DNA of 64,000 nt from Alphaproteobacteria bacterium. GTDB taxonomy: Bacteria; Pseudomonadota; Alphaproteobacteria; UBA828. The notes under the pieces are model-generated. The model worked only from the letters and a program-made list of their open reading frames with translations. It did no database searches and was not told where the DNA came from. The translations under genes and the position numbers were made by a program. Location of the stretch: contig CBDCCI010000002.1 of the NCBI GenBank assembly GCA_965214705.1, positions 2,912,001 through 2,976,000 on the forward strand. Direction: 5' to 3'. Shown in pieces: positions 32,467 through 61,839 of this stretch; the first letter of the stretch is position 1; the number at the start of each line of letters is the position of its first letter.

Positions 32467-32515
32467 GGTGGCCGGCTGCCGAATCCTTGGGGCGGAATGA
32501 CCGCGGCACGGCTTA

Positions 32516-45598: not shown

Positions 45599-45660
45599 CT
45601 CACAGCCGCACCGGGGGATGGTGGCGACGGCACTGAACCCCGCAGCAAGGCCCCGGATCG
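45599..45660 (+). repeat. ~60-bp direct repeat, copy 1
   Basis: CTCACAGCCGCACCGGGGATGGTGGCGACGGCACTGAACC..., identical for about 40 bp to the copy at 53994. Confidence 0.9.
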
Positions 45661-45852
45661 AACCCAAAGCACAACTGGCGCGTCGGGTGGCTAAGCCTCC
45701 GCGCTGCACGAGATCGAGCAGATCGACGACGCCATTAGTCGGATCGGGCTTGGGGAGCGGCTGTTCCCGAGACACCGGCTCGCGGCAGCAACGCCCAGTG
45801 CCTGCCGACGCTTCGCGATCTGTACATCTGCATTTTCCGCCGCCCCTGTCGA

Positions 45853-47475
45853 TCAGTCGAGTGCGACCTCCCCAGCGACCTCGTCGTGCGCGCCGGCAAG
45901 CGGCACGCCTCTCTCCAGGCCCTTCATGTGGTGGGCGATGCGCCACAGATGGTAGCTGACCCGGTAGAGCCATCGCATGGCGTCGAGCCGCATGAGCGTT
46001 GTTTCCGTATCCACCTCCGACGAGACCGCCGAAGTCACCATGGATTCCCGATAATGACCTCGCCGCCGGCCCAGCATTTGTGTGATCCGATCGAACCTTT
46101 CCAATTCTGACGCGATGTCCGCTTCGGCAGAGCGGTTCAGCGCGTCGCAAAGAACCAGGGAAAGGCGTCGGAGCCGATGCTCGGTGCGCAGGGTCCTCAC
46201 GCGGTCCTCCTGTTGGCCGCGATGAAGCAGGCGCAATGAATGATCCAGGATGTGGATTGTGGCGGCGTGGCGGCTTCGGAATTCCTGATCCAGGGAGTCG
46301 CTACGGATCCGGTCAACGAACGTTCTCGTTCGGACAAGCGCGTCGCTGAGTGCGGTATTCTCCGCCGGTTCTGCGGGTCCTGCGTGCCGGGGATCGAGCA
46401 ACTTCCTGAACGCCGCCGTCACGTGCCCGACGATATCGCTGGCAGTCGAGGTTGCCGCGTAGACCGCAAGCGCCGGATCGTCGAGCAGGCGGTCGTCGAG
46501 GCGGCGTGTGAGCGCCGGCCCCCGATCCGGAAACAGGAATATGATGAGGCGGGCGAACGGCTCCGCAAAGGGAAGCACGAAGGCCACGCCCAGAACGTTG
46601 AAGGCAGTGTGGAAGCCCACCAGTGCGAACTGGGCTGCTTCAACACCACCGCCGGCGAGCCAACGTTCGGTAAGCAGCGCGTAGAGATCGAGAAGGCAGA
46701 AGGCGAGCACGCCGGTCATCAGGTTGTAGATCACATGCGCGAAGCCTGTGCGCCGCGTCGCCGTCGAGCCGCCCACGGTCGCGAGCGCGGCTTTGAAAGT
46801 GGTACCGACGTCCATGCCGATCGCCATTGCTGCGGCCTGCGGGAAAGAGATTGCACCGCTTCCCAGGGCCGCGAGCGCCGTCGCCACGCCGACGCTCGAC
46901 GACTGTGTTACCAGCGTGATTGCAACGCCGATCAGTACCAGCAGCAGCCGTCCGCCCAGGCTGTCATCCGGAAAATCAGCGGGCGTCACGATGCCCTCGA
47001 ACCGGGACATGCCCTCTTGCATGGTGGCGATACCGATGAAGAGCACGCCGAATCCGGCGAGCGCCCAGCCGGCTGCTGCCAGGCGCGAGCCTCCGAACAA
47101 GCGCAACAGAGCGCCGACAAGGACCAGCGGCAGGACGGCGCTGCCGAGGCTGAGCTTGAAGCCCAGGAGCGCCACAAGCCAGCCGGTGATCGTCGTTCCG
47201 ATGTTGGCGCCCAGGACGATGCCGAGGCCCTGCGGAAAGGTCAGCAGCCCGGCTCCGACGAAGCCGACCGCCGTCACCGTCGTCACGCTCGACGACTGTA
47301 CGATTGCCGTGACGACCGCGCCCGCGGCAGCGCCTTTCCAGGGGCTGCTCGTGAACTGCGCCAGCACGCGTTGCATGGAGCCGCCGGCTATGTCGCGCAG
47401 TCCCTGCGTCAGGATGACCATGCCCAGCAGAAACAGTCCAATCCCGCCGAGCGCGACTGGAACGTCTCCATACAT
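45853..47475 (-). CDS. Na/Pi cotransporter family protein
   Basis: GGIGLFLLGM, VQSSS, GANIGTT, TQSSS. Confidence 0.92.
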   Translation of the reverse strand: MYGDVPVALGGIGLFLLGMVILTQGLRDIAGGSMQRVLAQFTSSPWKGAAAGAVVTAIVQSSSVTTVTAVGFVGAGLLTFPQGLGIVLGANIGTTITGWLVALLGFKLSLGSAVLPLVLVGALLRLFGGSRLAAAGWALAGFGVLFIGIATMQEGMSRFEGIVTPADFPDDSLGGRLLLVLIGVAITLVTQSSSVGVATALAALGSGAISFPQAAAMAIGMDVGTTFKAALATVGGSTATRRTGFAHVIYNLMTGVLAFCLLDLYALLTERWLAGGGVEAAQFALVGFHTAFNVLGVAFVLPFAEPFARLIIFLFPDRGPALTRRLDDRLLDDPALAVYAATSTASDIVGHVTAAFRKLLDPRHAGPAEPAENTALSDALVRTRTFVDRIRSDSLDQEFRSRHAATIHILDHSLRLLHRGQQEDRVRTLRTEHRLRRLSLVLCDALNRSAEADIASELERFDRITQMLGRRRGHYRESMVTSAVSSEVDTETTLMRLDAMRWLYRVSYHLWRIAHHMKGLERGVPLAGAHDEVAGEVALD

Positions 47476-47523
47476 GGTCCGGCTAAGCGAGCCCGGCCCG
47501 GCCGGAGAGGCTATGCGGGCAGG

Positions 47524-49119
47524 TCACCGGTCCGAAGCCTCTGGGGTGCGCCAAAAGGGCTTGGCGGCAGCAAAGGCGCGCCAGTCCTCGGCGAGGCTGG
47601 TGCGGGTTTCCTTGCAGACACGGGCGTGCCAGCCGATGACCTGCCCCGCCGCAACGGAGAGCGCCGCGAGATCGCCGCTCTTCCGATGATCGCGAAGCAG
47701 TGCCGTCAGGTGTCGCTCCGCGACAGCGGCATCGTTCAGGCGGCCCAGGCCGCCCTGGAGCCCGCGCGCCGCTCTGATGTAGGCATTGGATTTGCTTTCG
47801 GGGAACTGACCGGCGAAGAATTCGCACGGGTATCGCAGCTTCTTGAGCACGATCCTGAGCCGATGGAGTCCGCTGTCGGAGAGGTTCTCGAAGCCACGGC
47901 CGCGCTTGAAGACCCGCTCGTGGCGCTCGTCGAGAAGACGCCCGGCGAGGCCCGCAAGCGGCCGGTCGAGAACGGCGGGGTCAACCTTCTCCTGCCAGGC
48001 CGCTGTCTCGGTCCAGCGACCGAAGCGAAGCAGGAACGTGGTGAATTCAGGGTCACGCAATGCTTCCGCCCGTCGGTACGCGCGCTCGCGTTGCGCGTCG
48101 GCTGCTGCGGCAAGGCACACGAGGGTCTTGTCGTCCGGCCGCGCTGCCTGGACCGCCGCCAGAATTTCAGTGACGAATACGTCCCAGTCGCGGGCCGGGC
48201 CCAGCAAGTCGATGAGGAGCTTGGCCTCGCGCTCCAGCCACACAAGATCAACGGTCGAGAGAACGGGCTTGAAAGTGGAGAGCATCGAGCGCAGCCGACG
48301 CAGTGCAACACGAAACTGATGCACTCCTTCTGGATCGTCACCGTCCAGCACCGCATCCAGATTCGCCGCACAGTGGTCGGCGCAAGCGAGAAAGATCGCC
48401 CTCAAGGCACTGTCCACCGAGATACCTGGTTCCAGTGCCAGCGCGGGAGCCTTGTGACCGGTATATCCTTCTGCTCCGGCGAGGACGTACCCGCGCTTGG
48501 CTTTGCTGGCCGTCTGAATGCGGAACGACGCGGAGCCCTGCAGAGCCATGGCGAGTTCGTAGAGCGCGCTTGTCGGACCTTCGATCAGCTCAAGTTCGAG
48601 CTCCGAAACCGCATCCCGCTTCCCCTGGGCTTTGATCTCTCCGCTGTCGAGCGCGAGCTCGACCAGGGCGGCCCCGTGATCGAGTGCGGCGACCTCGACT
48701 CTGGCCGTCCGGCGCGTGACATCGGTGCAGAAGACCGGAGTCAGCTCCGCCGGTCCGAGTGGCCCGACCGTGTCGTGGACCGATGGATCTGACGCAAAGG
48801 GGAGGCTGGGCAGTGGCGTCTCGACCGGCCGCGACCATTCCTGGCGTCTGAGGATCAGACCGGGCCCGAAAGGCTCTTTCGACTTCAGGGTCTGGACCAG
48901 ACGTTCCCCGTCTTCACGAATGCGCAGTGTGAAGCCACAGCGGCGCAGGCGGAAGTCGCGCGTATCGTAATAGGTGCTGCGCAGCCGATGCGACGCATAG
49001 TCTGCATCCCCGGATACGGCCGTCCGCCAGCCTCGCTCAAGGGCGGCGGGATTGCCGGCGAGCGTCAGCTCGACCTCAGGCGCCGGCCCACCCTTTGCGG
49101 CTGCAGTTCCCCTTGTCAC
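47524..49119 (-). CDS. CYTH and CHAD domain protein
   Basis: EVEL, YYDT, LRIR, ELELEL (CYTH); HQFRVALRRLRS, LGPARDWDV, KKLRY, LGRLND (CHAD). Confidence 0.92.
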   Translation of the reverse strand: MTRGTAAAKGGPAPEVELTLAGNPAALERGWRTAVSGDADYASHRLRSTYYDTRDFRLRRCGFTLRIREDGERLVQTLKSKEPFGPGLILRRQEWSRPVETPLPSLPFASDPSVHDTVGPLGPAELTPVFCTDVTRRTARVEVAALDHGAALVELALDSGEIKAQGKRDAVSELELELIEGPTSALYELAMALQGSASFRIQTASKAKRGYVLAGAEGYTGHKAPALALEPGISVDSALRAIFLACADHCAANLDAVLDGDDPEGVHQFRVALRRLRSMLSTFKPVLSTVDLVWLEREAKLLIDLLGPARDWDVFVTEILAAVQAARPDDKTLVCLAAAADAQRERAYRRAEALRDPEFTTFLLRFGRWTETAAWQEKVDPAVLDRPLAGLAGRLLDERHERVFKRGRGFENLSDSGLHRLRIVLKKLRYPCEFFAGQFPESKSNAYIRAARGLQGGLGRLNDAAVAERHLTALLRDHRKSGDLAALSVAAGQVIGWHARVCKETRTSLAEDWRAFAAAKPFWRTPEASDR

Positions 49120-49417
49120 TGTCGAATTCGCCCTTCGATCAACGGCCCCGCTATTGAACGCGCTTCAGCGTTCGTCCCCGGGAGGCTCCCATACCGGTGT
49201 CCGTCCGCCAGGAGTTGAAGCTGGCATCGCGCGAAGTACGGGAGTGAGCACCAAATGATTCTAAGTAACTACCCAGGTACCCCGCCGCCAGATCTGAGTG
49301 CGTGCTGATGTTGGTCGCCGCCGGTGCCGTTTGGCCGTCGGCGCATCGATGATCTGCCCCTTGACTGTATAGGCGCGCTCGCCTATGGGTTGCTCTCTCG
49401 CATGAGAGGAGCAGCCG

Positions 49418-50086
49418 GTGGGGTATTTCGGATCGAAGGCGACGACCGGTCTGAGCCAGGCGCTGATTGCGCTGATGCCCCCGCACTCTGTCTATATCGA
49501 GAGCCACTTGGGGGGCGGGGCGCTGATGAAGCGCAAGCCTGCGGCCGTGCGCTTGATCGGGATTGACCGCGACGAGCGGGCGCTTGAGTCCTTCGACTGT
49601 GGCTACCCGGTGGAGTTGGTGCACGGCTGCGCCCACTCCTTTCTGGCCTCGTTCCCGTTCCTGGGCCCGGAGCTGGTCTACAGCGATCCGCCCTATCTGC
49701 ACGCGACCCGGCGTTCGTCGCAGCGCTACCGCTTCGAGTACGAGGAGGCCGACCACGTCGCGCTCCTCGAACTGCTCAAGGGTCTGCCCTGCCAGGTGAT
49801 GGTCTCGGGCCACCCGTCTGCGCTCTATGACGAGTTGCTGGCGGGCTGGCGCCGGCTGGCGCTGCAGGTGACGACCCAGGCCCAGGTGCGGACCGAGGTG
49901 GTGTGGTTCAACTTCGCGCCCGACCGGGTGCACTGGGCGAGCTGCGCGGGCCGCAACTTCACCGACCGCCAGCGCATCAAGCGCAAGGCGGCCAACTGGG
50001 GCCGGCGCTACGAGGCCATGCCGGCGGGCGAACGCCTGGCGGTGCTGGCCGCGATCATGGCCGTCGAGGCTGACGAGGGTTTGTGA
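49418..50086 (+). CDS. Compact Dam/D12-class N6-adenine DNA methyltransferase
   Basis: YFGSK, YIESHLGGGA (SAM binding), YSDPPY (catalytic), RTEVVWFN. Confidence 0.9.
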   Translation: MGYFGSKATTGLSQALIALMPPHSVYIESHLGGGALMKRKPAAVRLIGIDRDERALESFDCGYPVELVHGCAHSFLASFPFLGPELVYSDPPYLHATRRSSQRYRFEYEEADHVALLELLKGLPCQVMVSGHPSALYDELLAGWRRLALQVTTQAQVRTEVVWFNFAPDRVHWASCAGRNFTDRQRIKRKAANWGRRYEAMPAGERLAVLAAIMAVEADEGL

Positions 50087-51645
50087 CAGTGTCGCGCTGG
50101 CACGCGGACCTCGCCGCTCACGACGAGGCTTTCGCGTGCCTGCAGGACCTTTTCACCCCACAATCCTTCGCGATGACCGCCGTCAAAGCCATCCGGGAAT
50201 GGGGCCAGGGGCTGCTTCGCCTGAGCGCGGCGCTGGTCAAGGAGAACGACGCGCTGGAGCGGGAGAACGCCCGCTTGCGCGAGCGGATCGCCGAACTTGA
50301 GCGCAGCGCCGCGCTCGACAGCACCACCAGCTCCAAGCCGCCGGCCAGCGACGGCCTGAAGAAGAAGAGCGGAGACCAGGAGAAGAAGAGCGGAGACCAG
50401 GAGAAGCGCACCCGGAGCCGGCGCGGCAAATCCGACAGGCCCAGCGGCGGTCAGCCGGGCCACAAGGGAACCACCCTGGAGCGGACCGAGAACCCGGACC
50501 ACGTCGTGGATCATGATCCGTCCGCCTGTGAGGGCTGCGGCGCGCCGCTGTCGGACGCCGACCGTCACGGAGCCCCCGTCTGCCGGCAGGTCTTCGATGT
50601 GCCCGAGCCGCAGCCCCTCGAGGCCACCGAGCATCGCGGCCATCGCTGCCTCTGCGCCGCCTGCGGTACCATGACAACAGCCGCCTTCCCGAACGGCGTG
50701 AGCGCCCCGGTCCAGTACGGGCCGCGCATCACCGCGTGGGTGACCTACCTGCTGCACGCTCAGTTCATTCCGGAGAAGCGCGTCGCCGAGGTCATGAGCG
50801 ATCTCTTCGCGGTCAAGATCTCAACGGCCACCATCGCCGCCATGGGCCGGCGCACCGCCCGGCGCTTCGAGGGCTTCCTCGATCGTGTCGCAGAGATCAT
50901 CCGCACCGAAGCCCCGGTCAAACACCTCGACGAGACCGGCATCCGCATCGCCGCCCGGACCCATTGGCTCCACGTGCTGTGCACCCCGTTGCTGACCATC
51001 CTGCGCGTCGCCAGCGGGCGCGGCCATTTCGACGAGAAGCTCAACGGCATCGTCATCCATGACGACTATGCCACCTACTTCGCTCTCGAGGGCGTGCGCC
51101 ACGGGGCCTGCAACGCCCATCACCTGCGTGAGCTCCAGGCCCTGATCGAGATCGAGAAGGAAGACTGGGCAACGAGCACGCACCAGCTGCTCTCCCGTGC
51201 CAACAGAGCCGCCCGCTTCGCCCGCAAGAATGATCGCGACGTGCCCGCATCACTGGTCGCCCGCATCTCGCGAGCCTGGGACCGCATCCTCGAACGTGCC
51301 ATCGCCGCTCACGAAGAGATGCCGCCGCTCCAGACCGGAAAGCGCGGACGACAAAAGCGCCGCATCGGTCACAACCTCGCGCTCCGGCTCCAGAAGTACA
51401 AGGAGGGGTGCCTGCGCTTCCTCACCGACCCGCGAACCCCGTTCTCGAACAATGAGGCGGAGCGCGATCTGCGAATGGGCAAGCTGCGTCAGAAAATCTC
51501 AGGCGGCTTCCGCTCGATGCAAGGTGCCTGCGACTTCGCCAACCTGCGGTCCGTCATCGCCACCGCTCGAAAACAGCGCTGGAATGTCCTCGAAACCCTG
51601 GCGCACCCCGATCCCATGCAGCTAATCCCGGTACTGCGCTTCTGA
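50083..51645 (+). CDS. IS66 family transposase (ISBst12-like single ORF)
   Basis: TSSKPPASD, GGQPGHKG, zinc finger CEGC...CAAC, HLDETG, CNAHHLREL, NNEAERDLR, KISGGFRS. Confidence 0.95.
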   Translation: MTVSRWHADLAAHDEAFACLQDLFTPQSFAMTAVKAIREWGQGLLRLSAALVKENDALERENARLRERIAELERSAALDSTTSSKPPASDGLKKKSGDQEKKSGDQEKRTRSRRGKSDRPSGGQPGHKGTTLERTENPDHVVDHDPSACEGCGAPLSDADRHGAPVCRQVFDVPEPQPLEATEHRGHRCLCAACGTMTTAAFPNGVSAPVQYGPRITAWVTYLLHAQFIPEKRVAEVMSDLFAVKISTATIAAMGRRTARRFEGFLDRVAEIIRTEAPVKHLDETGIRIAARTHWLHVLCTPLLTILRVASGRGHFDEKLNGIVIHDDYATYFALEGVRHGACNAHHLRELQALIEIEKEDWATSTHQLLSRANRAARFARKNDRDVPASLVARISRAWDRILERAIAAHEEMPPLQTGKRGRQKRRIGHNLALRLQKYKEGCLRFLTDPRTPFSNNEAERDLRMGKLRQKISGGFRSMQGACDFANLRSVIATARKQRWNVLETLAHPDPMQLIPVLRF

Positions 51646-51891
51646 AATCCCCCGCCGCTCCGCTCCACGTCAGCGGCACCAGGCCAGAGGCATCAGTCCA
51701 TCACGCGTGAGTGCTCGGCGGAATCAGACCTGGGCAGTTACGATTCTAAGACCAATCTGTCGATCTTGTGACGCGAACGTATGAGTTAATCGTCCTCCAA
51801 TTCGTGAATGTCTTGCATTCTTTCCCAGCGCCGCGTAATCAGTTTATGCGATGATATTTCGCAGCCCCAATTTTCTCCTGTCTCTGACGCT

Positions 51892-53570
51892 GGGTGTAGG
51901 TCTGGCATGGCGATCGTAAGTCATTGATTTAGCGCGATTGGCGGGTGGCCGTAGGCAGCCAGAATCGGGTTTTCGTGACAATCGGCCGGTGCAGGGCCGG
52001 ATTTTGTCACAACGGCGGCATCCAGCAGTGGTGGGTGGGAACGCTCCGCACCGCGAGATGCGGTAGGATGCCGCGCCGACAACCCAACATCAGACCCAAC
52101 ATCAGGAGCGTTCCCATGCCAGTGTCGCAGTCTCTCATCGCCTCGTCCATCGACCTTTTGGGCCTGCCTGCCGAAGTCGCCGAAGCGGTCGCCCAGGTGG
52201 TGGAGTTCTGTCGCGAACAGGCTGGGTCTGACCCGTCTGCCGAGACGTTCGAAACGGTTGAGACGGGGCTGCGGGACGCCATGAACGGCTTGGGTTGCAA
52301 GCTCCTTGGGGCCTTCGCCGAGAGCCGCGACGACGGTGCGAGCCGGATCGAGCGCGACGGACAGAGCTGGGTCCGGGTGGCGGCGACGCCGAAGACGATC
52401 ATGACGACGCTCGGTCCCGTGACCTATCGGCGTGCGCGCTATCGCAGCGGCGCGAGCAGCACGTCGCTGGTGCCGGTGGACGAGAGCCTGGGCCTCATCG
52501 ACGACTACCTGACGCGGCCGGCGGCGCAGCTCGGGCTGATGATGATGGGCCACTGTACGCCGCGTGAAGCGGAGGAGTTCTTCGCGAAAATGGGCGGAAT
52601 GACGCCGTCGGTGAGCACGCTGCAGCGCCTGGCCCTGAGCATGCATGAGCACTGGGAGAGCGTCGCCCCGGAGACGCTGGCCAGCATCCGTGAAACCCAG
52701 GGCATACCGCCCGATGCGGTCACCGCGTCCGTCTCCCTTGACGGCGTCATGGTGGCGCTGCGGGCCGGCGAGGACGGCCGTGCCGAGGCGTGCTGGCGCG
52801 AGGCCTCTTGCGGCACGGTCTCCTTCCACGACGCCGAGGGCCAACGGCTGAAGACCCTCTATCTCGGCCGTATGCCCGAGAGCGGCAAGGCCGCGCTGAA
52901 AGCGCAACTTGCAAGCGAGGTCGCCCATATCCGCCGTGTGAGCCCGAAGATCAGGATCGGCGCCGTCGCCGACGGGGCCGCCGACAACTGGACCTTCCTC
53001 GAAAGCCTCTCGCCCGAGACCGAGGTCATCGACTTCTGGCACGCTTGCGAGCATCTCCGCGTGGCCTCTGACCATGCGGTGGCGCGCCACTGGTTCGAGA
53101 AGCACCGCGAAATCCTGCGCCACGACCCCCGCGGCGTCGACAAGGTGATCCGGGCACTGCGCTACCTCCTGGACAGGGCAAAGGGGGACCCGGCCGAGAT
53201 CGAGCGCGAGCTGGCCTTCTTCCGAAAGCACCGCCATCGGATGCGCTACCACGCCCTGAAGGAAGAGGGCATCGCCATCGGCTCGGGTGTGGTCGAGGCG
53301 GCCTGCAAGACCCTCGTCGCGCAGCGCTTGAAACGCTCGGGCATGCGCTGGCGGATCGACGGCGGGCAGGCGGTTCTGACCTTCCGCGCCCTGATCAAAT
53401 CCGGCCTCTTCGACCGGGCATGGGATGCGCTCATGGACGCCCGATCCGGACCAGCTAACGACAACATCAGCCCAACCGAAGTCCTGGCACTCGCTGCTTG
53501 ACCAAAATGAACCAGCCCATATCCTTTAGCGCCATCACGACTGGCATATCGCCATACGAGAATCACACCC
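51892..53570 (+). mobile_element. ISKra4/ISLre2-type insertion sequence (1679 bp)
   Basis: Imperfect TIRs GGGTGTAGGTCTGGCATGGCGAT / GGGTGTGATTCTCGTATGGCGAT; 8-bp TSD CTGACGCT at 51884-51891 and 53571-53578. Confidence 0.92.
52116..53501 (+). CDS. ISKra4/ISLre2 (UPF0236, mutator-like) transposase
   Basis: SLDGVMV, ADGAADNW, DFWHACEHL, IGSGVVEAACK, RLKRSGMRW. Confidence 0.9.
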   Translation: MPVSQSLIASSIDLLGLPAEVAEAVAQVVEFCREQAGSDPSAETFETVETGLRDAMNGLGCKLLGAFAESRDDGASRIERDGQSWVRVAATPKTIMTTLGPVTYRRARYRSGASSTSLVPVDESLGLIDDYLTRPAAQLGLMMMGHCTPREAEEFFAKMGGMTPSVSTLQRLALSMHEHWESVAPETLASIRETQGIPPDAVTASVSLDGVMVALRAGEDGRAEACWREASCGTVSFHDAEGQRLKTLYLGRMPESGKAALKAQLASEVAHIRRVSPKIRIGAVADGAADNWTFLESLSPETEVIDFWHACEHLRVASDHAVARHWFEKHREILRHDPRGVDKVIRALRYLLDRAKGDPAEIERELAFFRKHRHRMRYHALKEEGIAIGSGVVEAACKTLVAQRLKRSGMRWRIDGGQAVLTFRALIKSGLFDRAWDALMDARSGPANDNISPTEVLALAA

Positions 53571-53676
53571 CTGACGCTTTTATTGGTGATCTTCAGTCCT
53601 ATGAATTGCGTTGACCAGTGATTTGGCCATACTTTCGAATCGGCCGCCTCTTTTATATATCAAGTCTGGGTCCATT

Positions 53677-53713
53677 CAATTCGGGATTCATACTTAGGTG
53701 AAATTGCGTAGCG
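53677..53713. promoter_or_regulatory. 37-bp conserved motif, copy 2
   Basis: CAATTCGGGATTCATACTTAGGTGAAATTGCGTAGCG. Confidence 0.7.
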
Positions 53714-53993
53714 ACTGACCACCGGCACGGAATAAGAGCCAAAGCGCTCCTTCAGCGACAACAGCTCTCCTACCTCACTCCAGAATCGAGCCAGACTGGG
53801 TGGCAATACTCGTCATTCCCCCTCTCCGCGTGCATCATGGAGCCAGCGAATCACATCAGAGAACTATGTGCAATTGTAGTGCTATTCCTATTCCTCAAAG
53901 AACAGGTCCACGAGCTGCTCTATGCCTCCACGGGCCAATCAGCCAGCAAAGATTTCGAGTGATTATTGAGCCAGTCTCCCGATCCTTTTGGTC

Positions 53994-54055
53994 CTCACAG
54001 CCGCACCGGGGATGGTGGCGACGGCACTGAACCGCACAGCAAGCCCCTGAATCGG
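53994..54055 (+). repeat. ~60-bp direct repeat, copy 2
   Basis: Matches 45599-45660; lies just past the fixJ stop codon. Confidence 0.9.
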
Positions 54056-54085: not shown

Positions 54086-54706
54086 TTACTCGGCGAGCGG
54101 GTCGATACCGGAGACGATTGCCATGCGAACCAGGTGCGACAGGCTGCCGGCGCCCATCTTGACCATGACGTTCTTGCGGTAGATCTCGACCGTGCGCGGA
54201 CTGATGCCAAGCTCGTAGGCGGCGATCTTGTTGGGTCGACCCATGACCAATTGCTCGAACACCTCGCGCTCGCGGGGGGTCAAGGTGTCGATGCGCCGCT
54301 CAATCTCCGATCTCTCGTTCAAATGGCGTCGCAGGTTCGTTCCTGCCTCGATGGCCCGTTCCACACTCGCAATCAGGCGGTCTCGCGCCACCGGCTTCTC
54401 GATAAAGTCGATTGCGCCCGCGCGCATCGCACGCACGGCCATCGCAACGTCGCCATATGCTGTCACGATGATGACTGGAATCGTCTTCTCTTGTTCGGCC
54501 AGTCGCCGTTGAACTTCAAGCCCGTCGATTCCCGGCATCTTGATGTCCAGGACGACGCATGCAGCATCGTCGTCCGTCACTGCATCCAAGAACGCGGCAC
54601 CTGAGTCAAAGGTAGCCGTTCGGAAGCCCGCAGATTGAAGCAGCGCTTCGAGCGCCTCGCACACGGCCTCGTCGTCATCCACCACAAGAACGCGCGCGGG
54701 TGCCAT
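54086..54706 (-). CDS. fixJ: FixJ response regulator (REC + LuxR HTH)
   Basis: VVDDD, LDIKMPG, DFIEKP, LTPREREV, NKIAAYELGISPRTVE. Confidence 0.93.
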   Translation of the reverse strand: MAPARVLVVDDDEAVCEALEALLQSAGFRTATFDSGAAFLDAVTDDDAACVVLDIKMPGIDGLEVQRRLAEQEKTIPVIIVTAYGDVAMAVRAMRAGAIDFIEKPVARDRLIASVERAIEAGTNLRRHLNERSEIERRIDTLTPREREVFEQLVMGRPNKIAAYELGISPRTVEIYRKNVMVKMGAGSLSHLVRMAIVSGIDPLAE

Positions 54707-54707
54707 C

Positions 54708-55862
54708 TCAGCCGCTTCCTTCGGAATGGACAGGGACCGAGAAACGGAAGGTCATGCCGCCGCCTTCGCGCGTCTCGGCGGTGATTTCGCCGCCATGTCC
54801 CTCGACGATGGTACGGCATATCGACAGTCCGATGCCGATGCCATCGGGTTTCGAGGAAACGAAGGGCTCGAACAATCGCGGCTCGATATCGGGCGCCAGT
54901 CCCGGCCCCGTGTCGCTCACCTCCACTTCGACAACGCCGTCACGCTGCACAGTGGCAACGACGATCCTGCGCGACTCGCTGGCGCTCAGCGCATCAATGC
55001 TGTTGCGCACCAGATTGAGCACGACCTGTTGAATCTGGATGCAGTCGATCAGGACCGGCGGCAGATCCTGCGAGAGCTCGAGACTCACCTCAATGCCCGC
55101 CGCCGCGGAGCCCAACGCTGCCAGGGCACAAGTGTCCCGGACCAGCCCGTTGATGTCCTCGACCGCCCGGTCGGTATCGCCACGGTGCGTCAAGTCATAC
55201 AGGCGTTGAATAACGTTGGCTGCTCTGTGAGATTGAGCGACAGCCTTGCTCATATATTCCCGAGCCTGTTTCGGGACTCTGCTGTCGCTATCGTCAATGA
55301 GGGCCGCACCAGCCTCGACGAACCCGACGATGGCAGAAAGTGGCTGATTCAGTTCGTGAGCAAGCGCCGAGCCCATCTCTCCCAGGGCGCTTGCGCGCGA
55401 AACCCGCATCAACTCGGACTGCAGCTCCTCGATTCTCTCTTGAGCGCGCTTTCTTGCCGAGAGATCGTGGACCGTGCCAACGAACAACAACTCCCCGCTC
55501 GCTCCACGGAGCTCGCCGACCGACAGTCGCATCGGAAATGTCGATCCATCGCGCTTTTGCCCTACAACATCGCGACCGATGCCGATGATTTTTGCTTGTC
55601 CGGTCCGAACATAATTCTGCACATACATATCGTGATTGTCGCGGTGAGGCTGCGGCATCAGCAACTTTACGTTCTTGCCGAGTACATGCTCCGCCGGATA
55701 TTCGAACAGCCGTTCGCTCGCTGCGTTGTAGAGCAGAACGGTTCCCAGTTGATCGATTACGATCATGCCGTCGATAGCCTGATCGATCGCCTGGCGGAGT
55801 TCCTGCTCAGTGAATCTTGCCGCCAGCTTGCGTTCTCCCCTGCTTGGCGTCGACCCTGGCAT
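54708..55862 (-). CDS. fixL: Soluble heme-PAS sensor kinase FixL
   Basis: LMPQPHRDNHDMY...KIIGIGRDVVG...FPMRLSVGE heme-PAS; LAHELNQPL; start approximate. Confidence 0.92.
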   Translation of the reverse strand: MPGSTPSRGERKLAARFTEQELRQAIDQAIDGMIVIDQLGTVLLYNAASERLFEYPAEHVLGKNVKLLMPQPHRDNHDMYVQNYVRTGQAKIIGIGRDVVGQKRDGSTFPMRLSVGELRGASGELLFVGTVHDLSARKRAQERIEELQSELMRVSRASALGEMGSALAHELNQPLSAIVGFVEAGAALIDDSDSRVPKQAREYMSKAVAQSHRAANVIQRLYDLTHRGDTDRAVEDINGLVRDTCALAALGSAAAGIEVSLELSQDLPPVLIDCIQIQQVVLNLVRNSIDALSASESRRIVVATVQRDGVVEVEVSDTGPGLAPDIEPRLFEPFVSSKPDGIGIGLSICRTIVEGHGGEITAETREGGGMTFRFSVPVHSEGSG

Positions 55863-56246
55863 TTCAGTATCGACCTTGGTCTTTTCTCCGATTCGACTCC
55901 CAATTGAGCTGGATGGTTTCAGTCCGATGCAGAAACTCATGCCCTGTGTGAGAGCGACTGCGGGCGATACGATCTATGGGCCGATCCCACGCTGCCGGCG
56001 GACGAGGTGAACGCGCGTCCCCATCGAGCCCATGCACGTCGGCCATTCGCTCCCCCGCCTGCACGGCCTCCAGCTCGGCCTGAACCGATCGCTGGGAGCG
56101 CAGGCATCTCGATGACGCACTCCTGCGGCAACCTCGACGCGGGTTGCATCGCCACCCGCACCATACCACAGGACTCGCGATCATGATGGCCGCTGGAACG
56201 CGCTCGAAGCGCTCTCGTAGCTCGGCGGTCGTTTCGTGTGCCAGGT

Positions 56247-57884
56247 TCAATCGATGCGAGGCGGGCCGCCTCGTTGCGTCCGGGCAGGGTGCGGCACTTG
56301 CTCGTCCACGTGTGCGGCGAACCCTGAGCCGGCCTCTGCGTATGCGTTGAATACCGTCGATGCGCCGGCCTGTTCGAGCAGCTTGATCTCGTCCTGGAAC
56401 CTGGCCGTGGCGGCAACCCGACCGCCAAACGAGGCGGCCTTGAGCTGGTCGAGGACCGCGAGGCTGGCCGCCAGGTTCGGCAGCGCCAGCATCACCAGCT
56501 CAAGTGTGTGGGCGGCCCCGACGCGGTCCCAAAAGTCGGCGTCGCTGGGATCGCCGAGCAGCACGTTGCGGCCCGTCGACTGCTGGCGTTCTACCGTGAT
56601 CGGATCGATGTCGATGCCGACCACGGTCGCGCCATGCGATCGATGCATGCTGTCGTAGGTCCCGGTGCCGATACGCCCCATGCCGATGATGGCGATCGTC
56701 GCTCCTCCGATATCGAGCAGCCCGTCGTCGGCGAGACGCCCCGGTCGTTGCAGGCGTTTCCACGTCGTCCGATACCGGGTGTAGATCCGATGGGCAACGA
56801 CGTTGAGTCCCGCGGAGGCGGCGCAGGACAGAGACAACGCAATCGCGATAGCGATCAACCAGCCCCCGTCGATCCAGCCGTTGGCGACGCCGATGGCCGC
56901 GACAATGAGCCCGAATTCGCTGTAGTTGGTCAGGTGCAATGAGGCAAGCAACGAGGTGCGAGCCCGCAGCTTGAACCCCGTCAGCAGACCGAAGAAGAGG
57001 ACCGACTTGAGAAACACGAACGGCGTGATGGCCGCGCCGACCAGAACCGCCTCCATCTCCAGCTGTCCGGACAGTCCGATGGACAGGAAGAAGCCGAGCA
57101 GGAACAGATCCTTGAAGCCCAGCATGGTCTTTGCCAATTCGTCGGCCTTGTTGTGGCTGGCGATCACAACGCCCAGGACGAGGGCACCGAGGTCGCCTTT
57201 CAGCCCAACCAGCTCGAACGCTTCGGCGCCGCCCAAGGCGAGAAGGAAACCGTAGAGGACCAGAAGCTCGCCATGACCGACCCGCTGCAGAACAAGCGTC
57301 AGCACCGGCCGCAGCGGAACGACGAGCAACGCCAGAAGTGCCCATAACGTCGGCCACGTTCCAACCGAGATCGCGAGAAACACGACGGCGGCGAGGTCCT
57401 GCACGATGAGAATACCGATCGCAATTCGTCCATGGAGCGACGTCGTCTCCCCTTTCTCCTCGAGTACCTTCACCACGAAGACGGTGCTGGAAAAGCTCAA
57501 TGCAAAGGCGATCAGCGCAGAGCGCGAAAGATCGAGACCGGAGAGAAAGGACGTGCCCAGAAGGGCCAGGACATAGATGACCGTTCCGAAGACCAGAACG
57601 ACGATCGTCATATGCAACCCGGTGACTGCCCAAACCTGTGGCCGCGCGAAGGTGCGAAGGTTGAGCTTGAGGCCGACGATGAACAGCAACAGGGTGATGC
57701 CGAGGTCCGACAGTTTCTGGAGGATTTCCCCGCTGCCGATTCCGTAAACGTTCAGAACGAACCCGGTCGCGAGGAAGCCGACCAGGGGCGGCAGCCCGAC
57801 GGTCTTGGACAGCAAGCCCATCACGAATGCCATGGCGATCCATGCGACGTCATCCAGGGCGATGGCAATCAACTCGAAATCCAT
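56247..57884 (-). CDS. CPA2 cation:proton antiporter with TrkA-N domain
   Basis: LPPLVGFL, FSSTV, ILIVQD, SEFGLI, IIGMGRIG. Confidence 0.9.
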   Translation of the reverse strand: MDFELIAIALDDVAWIAMAFVMGLLSKTVGLPPLVGFLATGFVLNVYGIGSGEILQKLSDLGITLLLFIVGLKLNLRTFARPQVWAVTGLHMTIVVLVFGTVIYVLALLGTSFLSGLDLSRSALIAFALSFSSTVFVVKVLEEKGETTSLHGRIAIGILIVQDLAAVVFLAISVGTWPTLWALLALLVVPLRPVLTLVLQRVGHGELLVLYGFLLALGGAEAFELVGLKGDLGALVLGVVIASHNKADELAKTMLGFKDLFLLGFFLSIGLSGQLEMEAVLVGAAITPFVFLKSVLFFGLLTGFKLRARTSLLASLHLTNYSEFGLIVAAIGVANGWIDGGWLIAIAIALSLSCAASAGLNVVAHRIYTRYRTTWKRLQRPGRLADDGLLDIGGATIAIIGMGRIGTGTYDSMHRSHGATVVGIDIDPITVERQQSTGRNVLLGDPSDADFWDRVGAAHTLELVMLALPNLAASLAVLDQLKAASFGGRVAATARFQDEIKLLEQAGASTVFNAYAEAGSGFAAHVDEQVPHPARTQRGGPPRID

Positions 57885-58203
57885 GGTGCTACTGCCCGTT
57901 TCTCCCCAAGTCCGAACGCCATTCGCTAAGCCACATTGCAGTCATCCGATACTGAAGAAGGCGTCATTGTCGTTAGTGGAAACATGTCGATCCGGGGCAT
58001 CGCGCCGGCACATGGCCCCGGCGATCGGTGACGGCCCTGGTGACGAGCAGGAGGAACAGTCTCTTGTGGGCGAGCAGGGTTCGCGATTCGAAACCGCGCA
58101 CCCGCCGAAGGATAACCCGGCGGTCATACCGAAGCCGGCTAGTAACTTCCGACTCCGAGCACTGGCACGAATTCTCTCCGAGCAGGCGGCGCGTCGAGAC
58201 TAG

Positions 58204-58325
58204 GCCGTGTATTCACTAACGCAGAAACTGCCTGAATACATGGGATTTTCGTCAGCTGGTCGTTTGAGACATATTTGGGCAAATCATTGTTTGAACAGAA
58301 CTTTCTGCGTTAACGAGTACAGACT
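58204..58325. mobile_element. 122-bp MITE-like element
   Basis: AT-rich; imperfect 24-bp TIRs GCCGTGTATTCACTAACGCAGAAA / AGTCTGTACTCGTTAACGCAGAAA; CTAG on both flanks. Confidence 0.75.
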
Positions 58326-59147
58326 CTAGTGAGACATCAGGACCGGCACGGTCATCTCGCCCAGAACGTGGCGGGTCACGCCGCCCAGCAGGAGCTCCTT
58401 CAGCCGATGGTGACCGTAAGCACCCATGACGAGCAGTTCGGCACCCTGATCGCTCACGGTAGACAGAAGGATATTGGCAACGTCGATGTCCGAAGACCCG
58501 ACCGTGTGCTGGACTCCTGCGCTGACTTCATGCCGGGTTAGATGAGTGCTCACGTCTGCACCCGGAATGCGCCTGCTGTCGCCTGTGTCGATACCGAAGA
58601 CGACCACCTTGTTCGCCTGCTGCAACAGCGGCAGCGCGTCGGTCAGAGCGCGCTTCGCCTCTCGGCTGCCGTTCCAGGCGACCGTGACCGTCTCCGGACT
58701 GACGCCGAAGGAACCGGTGTACGGCCAAACCAGTACGGGTCCTCCGGCGGCGAGCACCACGCCGTCCGCCAAGGCTCCCACGTTATCATCGTCCTCATCA
58801 TGAGTTTGACCGACAATGGTGATGTCGGCGAAGCGTGCGATAGTCGAGACCGCATCGACCGGATCGCCCGTCATGAGGCGCCATTCGCCCTGCACCGACG
58901 TCTGAGCTATCCGCTCCCCGAACGCCCGTTCGACCTCTGCGGCAGAATTGCGCTGGCGCACGTCCAGCTCCCTCAGAATGTTCGGTGGAATTCGAAAGCT
59001 CGCATACTCCTGATAGAGAAGATCGGGTAGCACGTACACGCCGGTGACCCTGCCCTGGTGGCGTTCCGCCAGCGCGATGGCGGCATCCAGGCGCGCGGGC
59101 GAGCGCTTGTCCCGAGCCAAGTGCACCAGAATGTCCCTGTATGCCAT
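58326..59147 (-). CDS. Tandem-domain universal stress protein (close paralog of 32516-33340)
   Basis: YRDILVHLARD, GGPVLVWPY, LLVMGAYGHHRL, PVLMSH. Confidence 0.93.
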   Translation of the reverse strand: MAYRDILVHLARDKRSPARLDAAIALAERHQGRVTGVYVLPDLLYQEYASFRIPPNILRELDVRQRNSAAEVERAFGERIAQTSVQGEWRLMTGDPVDAVSTIARFADITIVGQTHDEDDDNVGALADGVVLAAGGPVLVWPYTGSFGVSPETVTVAWNGSREAKRALTDALPLLQQANKVVVFGIDTGDSRRIPGADVSTHLTRHEVSAGVQHTVGSSDIDVANILLSTVSDQGAELLVMGAYGHHRLKELLLGGVTRHVLGEMTVPVLMSH

Positions 59148-59249
59148 GATCTTCTCCCGTGTCAGGTCGCGCTCACCGGAATCTCTCGTCGTGAGTGCCA
59201 CCGATTGAATGGTCCCGGGGAGCCGGTTCGCGATGCGTCGTGCTTCCGT

Positions 59250-60281
59250 TCAGGGCCTGTCGACAATGGTAGTTGCGGAGAAGCCGAGCCAGTCCACGCG
59301 TCTGCCGATATCGGCCTCTATCTTCTGGATGAATGCGTGAAGATTGCCCTGCGAGTCTCCCAGTTCCTGCTCGCCGCCCACGAAGTCCAGATGGTTCAGG
59401 ACCACCCGGGTCGGCCGGTTGACCGCAAGCGCCCGCTTCACCAGCTTGGCGTCAAAGCGGGCCGGCCTGCGCAACAAGCCGGTGGACACCGTCAGCTCGG
59501 ACGCTATGTCCCGGCGCCCGGTCTCTTCGGCGATGGCCTCCCACGTCATTTCCCCGACGAGCGGTCCCGTATCCCCGGCCTCCCTGATCGGGAAAGACCG
59601 GACGACCATGGTGATGTCATCGACATCCACGGGGCTCAGTCCGGCTTCGGCCAGCGCGCCGGCCGCCGTCGTGCACCGCGCGGTTGCGTGCGGCCAGCAG
59701 CCGCCGTCCAGAATCGACATTCCGAAGCCGTGCGTGCCTTCGACGACGACCCGGTTGCCGTCTTCGATATGCTGGCGGAGACGCGTGCCGACATCGCCAA
59801 GGAAGCGCGCGAGTCTGGGCTCGTCCGCAGCGAAAACGGAACGCAGAGGGAGGTTTCTGGCCTGACGTGCCACCGACGCCATGATGGCCGCACCCACACC
59901 GGAACCGGCCGAGCCCAGCGTGCTGATGAGCTCTCCCGCCATTTCCCATTCCCGGTGCCGGGCGGTTATGACGTGCGCAAGGCGGCTGACCGAAACGCGC
60001 TCCTCGTCCAGGCCCAGCGTCTCGATTTCTTGCAAGAGAATATCGACATCGATGTACGAACCTGCGGGGAAGGCGACATCGACATCCCTGTCGACGCAGC
60101 AGGCGGGCAATTGGCGGAGCGAGTGCCGCTTTCCGGAGCGGTCGTAGGACGTATGTTCCGTGTCGGGACCACCAACACGTACCGCGACGACTTCCTCTTG
60201 AGACCGTCTCACGAGCTCAAGGGCCGTCTTGCCTTTGCCCTCGGAGCCGAACTGACCTCCAATCACGATCGAAACGGGCAT
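59250..60281 (-). CDS. Divergent adenylosuccinate synthetase paralog (PurZ0-like)
   Basis: GGQFGSEGKGK, RQLP, EGTHG, VVRSFPIR...GPL..E..W, NHLD; 343 aa; GGGGAGGT RBS. Confidence 0.85.
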   Translation of the reverse strand: MPVSIVIGGQFGSEGKGKTALELVRRSQEEVVAVRVGGPDTEHTSYDRSGKRHSLRQLPACCVDRDVDVAFPAGSYIDVDILLQEIETLGLDEERVSVSRLAHVITARHREWEMAGELISTLGSAGSGVGAAIMASVARQARNLPLRSVFAADEPRLARFLGDVGTRLRQHIEDGNRVVVEGTHGFGMSILDGGCWPHATARCTTAAGALAEAGLSPVDVDDITMVVRSFPIREAGDTGPLVGEMTWEAIAEETGRRDIASELTVSTGLLRRPARFDAKLVKRALAVNRPTRVVLNHLDFVGGEQELGDSQGNLHAFIQKIEADIGRRVDWLGFSATTIVDRP

Positions 60282-60394
60282 GGCTCACCTCCCCGCGCCT
60301 CGTCCCGAGCGCCGTCGACCTTCGAGTCGATGGGCAGCGGTCCAATCCGAATCGCCCGACTGAATGATGGTCGTGGCCCCTTTGCCGCAAACCG

Positions 60395-60763
60395 TCACGA
60401 GCGAACTCCTGCGGGCTCCGCGTTCGTTGCCGTGAGGCGATCTGGCCTCGTCGCGCCGGCGAGCGGCTCCGCTCGGCAAACGCAGGCCTCTCGCGGTGCA
60501 TCCCTTGGCCCGCCCTTCCGGCTAGGAGCGTCCAGGGCCTGTTCGAGCTGCGCCGCCAACTGCCGCGCCGCTGCCGGGGACAGGACGAAGATGTAATCCC
60601 TGAATTCCCTCTTCCAGTCGGCTTCGCACAAATGAACCGCGACCGTCCGCCCTGTGCCGTCCATCGCCGCGGCCAATTCCCCCACCACACGAACCGGCAG
60701 GCGCGGAAACCCCTTTGGATGCCGGAATCCGTGCTTGATATCGGCAGGAATGCACTTCGTCAT
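60395..60763 (-). CDS. Hypothetical protein
   Basis: MTKCIPADIK...DYIFVLSPAAARQLAAQLEQAL; co-directional with its neighbours. Confidence 0.5.
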   Translation of the reverse strand: MTKCIPADIKHGFRHPKGFPRLPVRVVGELAAAMDGTGRTVAVHLCEADWKREFRDYIFVLSPAAARQLAAQLEQALDAPSRKGGPRDAPREACVCRAEPLAGATRPDRLTATNAEPAGVRS

Positions 60764-60941
60764 CCTCTGTCCTCTGCTCCGATGCCTCTCGGGCCCGATC
60801 AAGATCAACAGGATCGCCGCGGGGAAGACGATCCCCAGGATGAACCTTCAGGAACCGCCGTGCCCTCGATTGCGTGCCGCGAGAGCACGCAACCTCCCGC
60901 CTCGCAACATCGCGTTCCTGATATGGCGCGCGCAGGCCGGT

Positions 60942-61235
60942 TCACCACGCGACGGGCTCCCCATAGCCGTTGAGGAGCCACTTGATTGCGTAATCGACAG
61001 GCTTCTCGATGGGACAGCGCAGCATCGAGAGCCTGATGAGGGCGTCGCGCCTGGCTTCTTCCTCGGTGACGAAAGTGTCCGCGCTAGAGATGATGCTTTC
61101 GTGGAGCCCCTTGCCGTCTTCCGTACGGCAATGCCTGACGAGCGACCAGACGATAGCCGCGTCTCCCGCCTCGTCCGCGTCCTTCTTCAGGCGCGCCGCC
61201 TGGAGCTCGACGATGTAGTGCCAATCCAGGGCCAT
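60942..61235 (-). CDS. Hypothetical protein
   Basis: MALDWHYIVEL...TFVTEEEARRDA...; ATG overlaps the upstream stop (TGATG). Confidence 0.6.
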   Translation of the reverse strand: MALDWHYIVELQAARLKKDADEAGDAAIVWSLVRHCRTEDGKGLHESIISSADTFVTEEEARRDALIRLSMLRCPIEKPVDYAIKWLLNGYGEPVAW

Positions 61236-61588
61236 CAGAAGTTCCTCAGCGTCAGAAGGGCGTTGTGGCAGGCCCAATCCTCGCGGTCCGGGCGCGTGAT
61301 GAGGAGGCGGTCGTCGCCGGCGACGAAGCGCTTCAGTCGATTCCGGAGTTGCCATGCCGATGCTCCCTCGCAGCGAATGCCCCAAAGAGAAGCGAGCACC
61401 TTCCGCCCGGCCATGCTCTTCAGGGCACCAACAAGCTCCGGATAATCGGCATCCGGGCCTGTGAGATCGCAACTCACCAGGTACACCAGCGGCCGATGCA
61501 ATTCGGAAAGGTGGTCCGCGCCTGCGGGTACCGGATGGAACGCAAGCGCGGACCCACGAGACACCGGAGCAGACAGATGGCGTCTCAT
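61235..61588 (-). CDS. Stand-alone Cas2/VapD-like small ferredoxin-fold protein
   Basis: VYLVSCDL..P..DY..L..AL...LASLW.I...SA.QLRNRL....DDRLLI pattern; alternative GTG start at 61486. Confidence 0.6.
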   Translation of the reverse strand: MRRHLSAPVSRGSALAFHPVPAGADHLSELHRPLVYLVSCDLTGPDADYPELVGALKSMAGRKVLASLWGIRCEGASAWQLRNRLKRFVAGDDRLLITRPDREDWACHNALLTLRNF

Positions 61589-61839
61589 GCAGTCAGCCGA
61601 TCCAGGATCTTGCCAGGAGAGAAGTGCACGCGAGCAGTCACCCCCTCCCGATTGGGGCGCAGACAGATCCTGCGAACTGGCTGCACTGGAAGCTCTGCCA
61701 TCTTTGCTGTCTTGCCGTCGGTCAGGCCCAGCAAATGGAGGAGGAGAGTCTTGGTCGTGGTCTCTGATCGCACGTGCCAGCCCTTCCTCGACGCCCAGAC
61801 CGCGAAGCGCAGTATTGGAGACAAGAATTCCGGTCCCAT
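61585..61839 (-). CDS. Possible small hypothetical protein
   Basis: 84-aa ORF whose stop overlaps the next ATG (ATGA); no recognisable motif. Confidence 0.3.
   Translation of the reverse strand: MGPEFLSPILRFAVWASRKGWHVRSETTTKTLLLHLLGLTDGKTAKMAELPVQPVRRICLRPNREGVTARVHFSPGKILDRLTA

Follow-up and report, generated by a model that had tools for sequence, protein, structure and literature searches.

A PurZ0-like gene with a replaced acceptor pocket in an alphaproteobacterial genome, nested in a bacterial family of operon-linked Ser13 proteins

Introduction

What does a protein of the adenylosuccinate-synthetase fold do when it keeps the parts that handle guanosine triphosphate (GTP) and exchanges the residues that hold the acceptor? 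The question is raised by a gene at 59250..60281 (minus strand) of a 64,000-nt stretch of DNA, referred to here as the window, from an Alphaproteobacteria bacterium of the UBA828 lineage (GenBank assembly GCA_965214705.1, contig CBDCCI010000002.1, positions 2,912,001 to 2,976,000). To our knowledge, only two reaction specificities are known for this fold. PurA acts on inosine monophosphate (IMP) in all cells, and PurZ and PurZ0 act on deoxyguanosine monophosphate (dGMP) in phages whose DNA has 2-aminoadenine (Z) instead of adenine (A). The gene had been described from the sequence letters as a PurZ0-like, GTP-type paralog with an altered active site and no phage context. This original prediction offered three explanations: a ligase with a different substrate, a non-catalytic nucleotide sensor in a hypoxia-regulated operon, or a decaying gene. 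By the sequence-based tests run in this work, the gene is neither PurA nor a phage PurZ/PurZ0; it is an aberrant member of a bacterial sister family.

Results

An intact gene with a replaced acceptor pocket

The gene is an uninterrupted 343-aa open reading frame (ORF) of the adenylosuccinate-synthetase superfamily with its ATG at 60281. A Shine-Dalgarno-like GGAGG, read from the sequence at 60288..60292 (minus strand), lies 6 nt 5' of the start. The translation carries GGQFGSEGKGK, GGPDTEHT, GSAGSG, EGTHG, PIREAGDTGP, ELTVSTG, and NHLD; the intact frame, GSEGKG, and every motif change listed in the original prediction were found in the translation and in the alignments. The P-loop G12-S13-E14-G15-K16-G17 (60231..60248; this motif and those that follow are on the minus strand) has Ser at the PurA Asp13 position, and S13 aligns with S23 of the PurZ of cyanophage S-2L and with the D of PurA from the same genome. 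The 40s loop reads P39-D40-T41-E42-H43-T44 (60150..60167), at a site that is N-(S/A)-G-H-T in the bacterial family and in PurA/PurZ. A125 of G123-S-A125-G-S-G (59898..59915) and H184 of E181-G-T-H184-G (59727..59741) occupy positions that are T125 and Q184 in the family and align with S-2L PurZ T132 and Q190, respectively. In P231-I-R-E234-A-G-D-T238-G-P (59562..59591) the family residues are V234 and S238, and E234 aligns with S-2L PurZ V241. The aspartate loop E262-L-T-V-S-T-G268 (59478..59498), with L263-T-V-S-T267 confirmed in the translation, is E-Y-T-T-V-T-G in the family and aligns with S-2L PurZ Y272-L278. The guanine-type nucleoside triphosphate (NTP) base motif N296-H-L-D299 (59385..59396) is kept.

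The extent of the change was measured in a 231-sequence family alignment, in which 85 columns reach 95% conservation or more across the 223 members outside a small subclade of eight sequences that includes the window protein. At these columns the eight subclade members deviate 10-12 times, and the 223 others have a median of 0 and a maximum of 6 deviations. The window protein deviates at 11 of the 85 (N40D, S41T, G42E, I122L, T125A, Q184H, L188M, V234E, S238T, V273P, and Y300F). N40, G42, T125, Q184, and V234 are each found in 223/223 members outside the subclade and S41 in 221/223. Inside it, E42, E234, and T238 are present in 8/8 sequences, D40, T41, and A125 in 7/8, and H184 in 6/8. Across the 280 superfamily proteins compared, no sequence outside this subclade has Glu at the positions of G42 and V234.

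Residues were then mapped in an alignment of S-2L PurZ, the PurZ of Vibrio phage phiVC8, PurZ0 of phage Archimedes, family members, two short Asp13 forms, and the genome's own PurA. D40, T41, E42, A125, H184, and E234 correspond to S-2L PurZ N49, A50, G51, T132, Q190, and V241, and all rows other than the window protein keep N, G, T, Q, and V at five of these pocket positions. The accessible part of the work on S-2L PurZ (PMC8342488) assigns G22, S23, N49, A50, T132, Q190, and V241 to the dGMP base pocket and S23, G25, G51, H52, and T53 to the binding of the triphosphate. It places V241 3.7 Å from ribose C2', lets the loop Y272-L278 contact aspartate, and pairs the phosphate with R146 from the other subunit. 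With the contact list taken from that part of the source and mapped by alignment, changes were found at 6 of 15 ligand-contact columns vs 5 of 70 other conserved columns (Fisher one-sided p = 0.003). Kept and invariant in the subclade are G12, S13, G15, K16, H43, R139 (equivalent to R146), T200, T264, R271, R272, N296, D299, and S335, and the GSEGKG P-loop and the NHLD motif as a whole are likewise subclade-invariant. We take the His43 position to be the catalytic acid in PurA. In E. coli PurA the 5'-phosphate is presumably bound by Asn38 and Thr129, whose equivalents are changed in the window protein, and the Mg2+/gamma-phosphate site is presumably made by the Gly40 carbonyl and Asp13.

Comparison with PurA, PurZ, and PurZ0

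The Pfam match of the window protein (PF00709, 122.5 bits vs a cut-off of 27) is far above chance level. The NCBIfam matches were all below cut-off: the archaeal-type short PurA model NF003295 scored best (204.2 bits vs 368), the PurZ model NF038379 gave 182.9 bits vs 300, and the PurA models TIGR00184 and NF002223 gave 145 vs 395.55 and 113 vs 402, respectively. The closest PDB sequence match was 7VF6 (E = 1.3e-37), identified in the accessible part of PMC12884076 as the PurZ0 from Gordonia phage Archimedes; Pyrococcus horikoshii PurA came second (8e-35). An AlphaFold2 model built from a 22-row alignment (pLDDT 75.7, pTM 0.79) gave a TM score of 0.75 against P. horikoshii PurA and 0.73 against PurZ0 7vf6, with PurA structures in the range of 0.69-0.75.

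The catalytic Asp13 (GDEGKG) is 99% conserved within the PurA clade according to the part of PMC12884076 consulted, whereas the window protein has Ser13. Nor is it the AMP-branch enzyme of its genome (7.9 Mb, 3 contigs, 98.5% complete). A separate canonical purA, whose existence the original prediction had proposed to confirm, lies on another contig (C1:2798151-2799404; 431-aa open frame, 578 bits, GDEGKG and NAGHT), and the gene in the window is not the sole purA. The archaeal-type short PurA (P. horikoshii, PDB 2D7U/5K7X; NF003295) shares the best full-length NCBIfam model, the best fold match, and the GTP-type motif, but it has Asp13 and the canonical N/G/T/Q/V pocket.

Ser replaces Asp13 in 100% of the 147 phage PurZ-group sequences reported in the same accessible part of PMC12884076, as it does in the window protein. 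D299 aligns with the D of Archimedes PurZ0, of the bacterial family, and of the genome's own PurA, at a position that is Q308/N297 in the PurZ of S-2L and phiVC8, which takes ATP/dATP. Ser13 and the NHLD Asp thus bear out the description of a PurZ0-like, GTP-type paralog with an altered active site. PurZ of S-2L and phiVC8 (DgsS; PDB 7ODX, 6FM1) has in common with the window protein the fold, Ser13, the dimer Arg, and the catalytic His, but the identity is ~27%. Archimedes PurZ0 shares the short archaeal-type PurA fold, Ser at the Asp13 position, the guanine-type Asp, and a PIRxAG-type loop, at only 33-35% identity. The dGMP pocket sets the window protein apart from both. G12 and S13 (S-2L G22 and S23) are kept, whereas the other five positions have become D40, T41, A125, H184, and E234; the window protein has lost the N, G, T, Q, and V of the pocket, which PurZ0 has retained. 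In both trees described below the protein falls in a separate bacterial family and not in the phage PurZ/PurZ0 clade.

The genomic setting also differs. PurZ0 has neighbors of the DutZ/DmtZ/DpoZ type, whereas no Z-cluster-like gene was found near the window gene, with DatZ and DpoZ not specifically searched for and the first 44 kb of the window unannotated; the claim of no phage context is upheld to that extent. The sole MazG match in the genome is ~1 Mb from the gene.

The parent bacterial family and its three-gene operon

A word-indexed search returned 713 matches, and an exhaustive HMMER search of cluster representatives returned 3661 matches at E <= 1e-3 and 291 at E <= 1e-30. In a scan of one genome per prokaryote species, a relative was encoded at 305 loci, many on contigs of several Mb, in Alphaproteobacteria, Gammaproteobacteria, Binatia, Cyanobacteria, Nitrospirota, Desulfobacterota, Chloroflexota, NC10, and others. 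Of the 150 top representatives, 114 have Ser in the P-loop (GSEGKG in 102 and GSEAKG in 12), 4 have Asp, 4 Gly, and 2 another residue; the remaining 26, mostly fragments, gave no match to the motif. Because the locus scans relied on the peptide pattern QFGSEGKG, Ser13 invariance among the loci is partly built in; the representative search is not affected. At its other motifs the family consensus is canonical (PNSGHT, GSTGSG, EGTQG, PIRVAGxSGP, EYTTVTG, and NHLD). Judged from these sequences, GSEGKG is a family-wide trait and the other motif changes are specific to the small nested subclade. GSEGKG, which the original prediction had read as the hallmark of PurZ/PurZ0, is present as claimed, but it belongs to a large operon-bearing bacterial family as a whole and does not single out the gene.

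Window protein and family members are 55-64% identical and share equal length, the P-loop, NHLD, and the C-terminal motifs. The difference in context is that the family has two flanking partner genes, whereas the window gene has neither and is followed by a universal stress protein (USP) gene. The partners were recognized by clustering the ORFs called around 80 genome loci and the window (81 loci). A ~640-aa protein lies directly upstream, overlapping and on the same strand, at 73/81 loci, and a ~360-aa protein lies directly downstream at 75/81; several loci that miss one partner are short contigs (2-2.5 kb) that break off at that point. The PurZ-like protein between them has ~347 aa. Three parts make up the upstream partner: an exonuclease-like domain of the RNase_H_2 type (PF13482), a middle with weak likeness to DUF429, and a P-loop nucleotide kinase (AAA_18). 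Among PDB structures it is related to AdkA-like kinases and to the exonuclease MrfB. The downstream partner has a dCTP-deaminase/dUTPase-fold domain (PF22769) and a helical tail; the best PDB matches of its profile are two 155-aa entries named 'dCTP deaminase', 8y1w and 9ln0 (E 6e-16). An additional deoxynucleoside kinase was seen at some operon loci. Natural fusions join the PurZ-like protein to DCD (P0125, 644 aa) and a kinase to the PurZ-like protein (P0222, 540 aa).

The arrangement resembles a non-phage, chromosomal version of the phage PurZ0 cluster. Examples are L011:6130-10123 (Hoeflea sp. AS60), L036, L071, L077, and ~70 further loci, together with G002:C6:943399-947615 in a congener of the window's organism. 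The dCTP-deaminase-fold partner was also compared with the two annotated dUTPases of phage Archimedes; hhalign probabilities of 18% and 0.1% gave no specific link. No description of the three-gene operon was found in the open full-text literature, a search whose reach did not extend to supplements or to Tong et al. 2023. In PADLOC the PurZ-like proteins match no family, and the partner proteins gave weak domain-level matches only (dCTPase kinase region, E 1.6e-10; PDC-S44, E 2e-5); a defence role of the parent operon is an idea at this stage. The PurZ coding sequence (CDS) in the phiVC8 record NC_027118.1 (L093) carries the note 'similar to Solibacter usitatus [YP_827486]'; relatives of PurZ on bacterial chromosomes had therefore been noticed already at annotation time, although no study of them was found.

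Nesting of the subclade and loss of the partner genes

The phylogeny with PurA, PurZ, and PurZ0 that the original prediction had called for placed the gene within the bacterial Ser13 family, near phage PurZ0/PurZ. A quick tree of 91 rows put the 64 rows of the bacterial family nearest to the phage PurZ0 + PurZ clade (support 88-89; overall the link between the two groups is moderately supported, 88-90). In it the window protein, P0002-P0007, and L004 form the 8-row subclade with SH-aLRT 100. L004 is the same locus as G007/L085 and encodes the 87%-identical ortholog in a congener. In the same tree two short representatives with Asp13 (GDEGKG), P0198 and P0268, sit on long branches within the Ser13 family, a placement that may reflect Ser-to-Asp reversal or long-branch misplacement. 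A careful 47-row tree (LG+G4, ultrafast bootstrap/SH-aLRT), built without most phage rows, the unnamed representatives, and the long or compositionally aberrant L052 and L055, recovered the subclade with 100/100, inside a 12-row clade with 99/95 and a 19-row clade with 100/100. Every row of the 12- and 19-row clades outside the subclade has both partner genes. The topology agrees with that of the 91-row tree. The subclade is nested among operon-bearing rows and is therefore derived from operon-linked ancestors. Its eight sequences are 72-92% identical, and the genome-contig scan returned one subclade locus, L004.

Both partners are absent at the window and L004 loci. Partner profiles A2 and A3, made from 14 and 15 sequences, had no match in the whole 98.5%-complete genome. 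As a positive control, the same profiles recovered both genes on either side of the family member in congener G002 that is 42% identical (E 6e-245 and 2e-78). They matched nothing in G007, the congener with the 87%-identical ortholog, whose genome is 67% complete. A metagenome scan with subclade member P0005 found no relative.

Selective maintenance of the gene

Compared with the L004 ortholog, the gene has no indel, the differences at the three codon positions are 25/22/64, and dN/dS (Nei-Gojobori) is 0.225. The divergence is 10.8% within the gene (111/1032) and 24-35%, with indels, in the spacers on either side; the non-coding upstream spacer (60282..60394, minus strand) has 40 substitutions in 113 positions relative to the ortholog's locus, in addition to indels. 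Contigs of four other public runs, from four studies, contain no CDS indel and 17 coding single-nucleotide polymorphisms (SNPs), 12 synonymous and 5 non-synonymous; some of the 17 rest on low-depth contigs, and the X8 and X9 contigs span only parts of the stretch. In the upstream spacer, 13 nt at 60313 are missing in the contigs of two of the four runs. We concluded from these sequence comparisons that the gene is under purifying selection and selectively maintained. The substitutions are not private to the strain, a point on which the original prediction had made its own standing depend: they are conserved in eight sequences down to 72% identity, with dN/dS of 0.22.

Gene neighborhood

A tandem USP gene (58326..59201, minus strand; PF00582 in two stretches, likely true start ATG 59147) lies directly downstream, ~50-100 nt from the PurZ0-like gene and on the same strand, and is syntenic in L004. 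No terminator-like site was seen between the two, and a sigma-70 promoter scan gave 0 sites in 57800-61600. Next after USP comes a Kef-type K+/H+ transporter gene. The USP/Kef synteny is common to one congener only and is for that reason not independent evidence of a functional link. A second USP paralog at 32515-33341 has ~71% DNA identity to the gene-adjacent USP (blastn, L004 1899-2722). Upstream is a lineage-specific hypothetical ORF (60395..60808, minus strand), 137 aa as listed and 122 aa in its relatives, with no Pfam family; its five homologs are all close relatives (78-99% identical), and its codon-position differences are 21/21/40. Divergently oriented cbpA/cbpM-like genes are found further upstream. 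The surroundings within ~8 kb thus comprise USP, Kef, a PAS kinase, a response regulator, transposases, and CbpA/CbpM.

The kinase and the regulator, a PAS/HisKA/HATPase histidine kinase (410 aa) followed by a REC + LuxR/GerE regulator (206 aa) at 54086-55940 (minus strand), have a FixL/FixJ-like architecture. This pair, 3.3 kb from the PurZ0-like gene, and the adjacent USP are all that could be set beside the hypoxia-regulated operon proposed earlier, and the proposal gained no support: no FNR/FixK-type box (TTGA-N6-TCAA) lies near the gene, the window has a single match, at 22463, with ~0.3 expected by chance, and no RNA data set was among the 21 runs listed. That sole palindrome, TTGATCGAAGTCAA (22463-22476), is just upstream of an ORF starting at 22529. 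An 8.3-kb stretch (45660-54000) is absent from the syntenic congener contig L004. It contains an IS66-family transposase (50083-51645, plus strand) and a UPF0236-family protein (51945-53501, plus strand), and is probably a mobile-element insertion.

Discussion

The product of the gene is not the cell's PurA and most likely not a working PurZ0 either. The partner genes were lost, a burst of replacements was fixed at otherwise invariant pocket positions, and the elements for NTP binding, phosphoryl transfer, and dimer contact were kept under purifying selection; a change of substrate is therefore favored. We put the probability of a neofunctionalized GTP-dependent ligase with a new acceptor at about one half, as judged from sequence. 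The ancestor would have been a bacterial PurZ0-like enzyme, probably joining aspartate to (d)GMP with GTP. On the stem of the subclade, residues that line the acceptor-nucleotide pocket and are invariant across PurA, PurZ, PurZ0, and the bacterial family were replaced (N40D, S41T, G42E, T125A, Q184H, and V234E), while the parts for GTP handling and phosphoryl transfer were retained: the P-loop GSEGKGK, NHLD, His43, Arg271/272, and Arg139, which is predicted to extend to the other subunit of the dimer. The chemistry would be that of the family, in which GTP phosphorylates the carbonyl oxygen and the amine then displaces; the acceptor, and perhaps the amine, would differ. The new carboxylates D40, E42, and E234 are predicted to lie at sites that in homologs serve the 5'-phosphate, Mg2+/gamma-phosphate, and ribose C2'. 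E42 could replace the carboxylate lost with Asp13, and a metal or base site may have been rebuilt. E234 could accept a 2'-OH, and 5'-phosphate binding may be weaker. Co-transcription with the downstream USP gene is probable.

Several points weigh against a neofunctionalized ligase. The dN/dS value is only moderate and comes from one ortholog pair in one genus, and the adjacent USP seems more constrained (codon-position differences of 15/8/50). The distribution is patchy: any relative at E <= 1e-30 was found in 2/20 congeners and 0/20 more distant relatives, and a JGI metagenome scan with the subclade alignment gave 438 family relatives, none of them in the subclade (best 59% identical). Aspartate-loop positions 265-267 vary within the subclade, and selection there could be relaxed rather than redirected. 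Two relatives are disrupted, although these may be real disruptions or assembly artefacts: the metagenomic P0012 (295 aa) is frameshifted after REAGDTG, and P0278 (515 aa) has a D-Ala-D-Ala-ligase-like (ATP-grasp) N-terminus in place of the P-loop. P0278 also hints at an ATP-grasp neighbor in its lineage; no such gene was found in the window or L004 (best E 0.063). The fold model is only moderate and is unreliable at 123-139, 187-202, and the C-terminus, and no pocket geometry was therefore taken from it. Changes at Asn38, Thr129, and Gln224 of E. coli PurA cripple catalysis, a point for which no open paper was found; with the equivalents of these residues changed, the pattern in the window protein therefore fits loss of catalysis as well.

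Such a loss would make the protein a pseudoenzyme or sensor, a nucleotide-binding regulator alongside the neighboring stress protein that has kept the fold and a site for GTP (or a ppGpp-like guanine nucleotide) and given up ligation. We regard this as a minority possibility, though a real one. The protein has the P-loop and NHLD but has exchanged acceptor-pocket residues that are invariant in all characterized relatives, the pathway partners are lost, and the USP gene adjoins, with Kef, CbpA/CbpM, and the two-component system nearby. Yet His43, Arg139, Thr200, Thr264, and Arg271/272, which serve the acceptor and amine sites and not GTP binding, are invariant in the subclade; the replacements are fixed across 72-92% identity with no sign of drift; and no precedent for a non-catalytic PurA-family protein was found in the literature searched. 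It is somewhat more doubtful that the protein is still a PurZ0-type enzyme making succino-2-amino(deoxy)adenylate from (d)GMP, Asp, and GTP, with a pocket re-tuned, for example, from deoxy- to ribonucleotide, and working alone with the host PurB and kinases. Ser13, Gly12, and the Phe11 backbone region are kept together with NHLD, PurZ0 7vf6 is the best PDB sequence match, NF038379 scores 182.9 bits, and a Glu in place of V234, at a position given as 3.7 Å from ribose C2' in the accessible part of PMC8342488, could favor a 2'-OH. That NF038379 score is nevertheless under the cut-off of 300, five of the seven base-pocket residues named for S-2L PurZ in that part of the source are replaced, plus G51, at positions invariant in 223/223 other members (S41 in 221/223), and the dCTP-deaminase-fold partner that would supply such an enzyme and the kinase partner are absent.

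A remnant drifting after loss of the operon, with a stop codon not yet acquired, could account for the missing partners, the patchy distribution, the disrupted P0012 and P0278, and the variable aspartate loop, and transposases and the 8.3-kb insertion relative to the ortholog's locus are near. For the window copy, decay, the last of the three explanations offered originally, is nonetheless unlikely, even though the two disrupted relatives exist: dN/dS is 0.225, synonymous SNPs outnumber non-synonymous ones by 12 to 5 with no CDS indel against a 13-nt indel in the spacer, the gene surpasses the flanking spacers in conservation by a factor of 2-3, the derived residues are common to sequences down to 72% identity, and a good Shine-Dalgarno sequence is kept. 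A back-up or stress-specific adenylosuccinate synthetase with ordinary PurA chemistry on IMP is very improbable. It would agree with superfamily membership, and the carboxylate at position 42 could in principle replace Asp13. Against it stand Ser13 in place of the catalytic Asp, changes at the equivalents of N38, T129, Q224, and V273, which the genome's own PurA keeps, scores of 145 vs 395.55 (TIGR00184) and 204 vs 368 (NF003295), and the presence of the canonical purA.

Returning to the favored neofunctionalized ligase, we tentatively suggest a more specific form of it, one that we hold to be possible without expecting it. The subclade may represent a third specificity of the superfamily after PurA (IMP) and PurZ/PurZ0 (dGMP), namely a stand-alone GTP-dependent ligase whose remodeled, more acidic pocket (D40, E42, E234, H184, and A125) takes a different nucleotide-like substrate, and perhaps a different amine, to give a modified purine nucleotide in a cellular stress-linked setting. 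As a corollary, the parent operon, present in >300 bacterial species, would be a chromosomal, non-phage pathway for 2-aminoadenine-type nucleotides. Natural dZ-DNA is reported only from phages in the accessible part of PMC13128860.

The observation is solid and unusual for the fold, in a subclade that is small and rare. It amounts to a natural experiment, in which the GTP and phosphoryl-transfer machinery was kept, almost the whole of an otherwise invariant acceptor pocket was exchanged, and selection then preserved the result. Should the protein prove active, bacteria themselves would seem to make a new purine-nucleotide modification, and engineering of the fold would gain a template. The parent operon makes it testable whether cells, beyond phages, produce 2-aminoadenine nucleotides.

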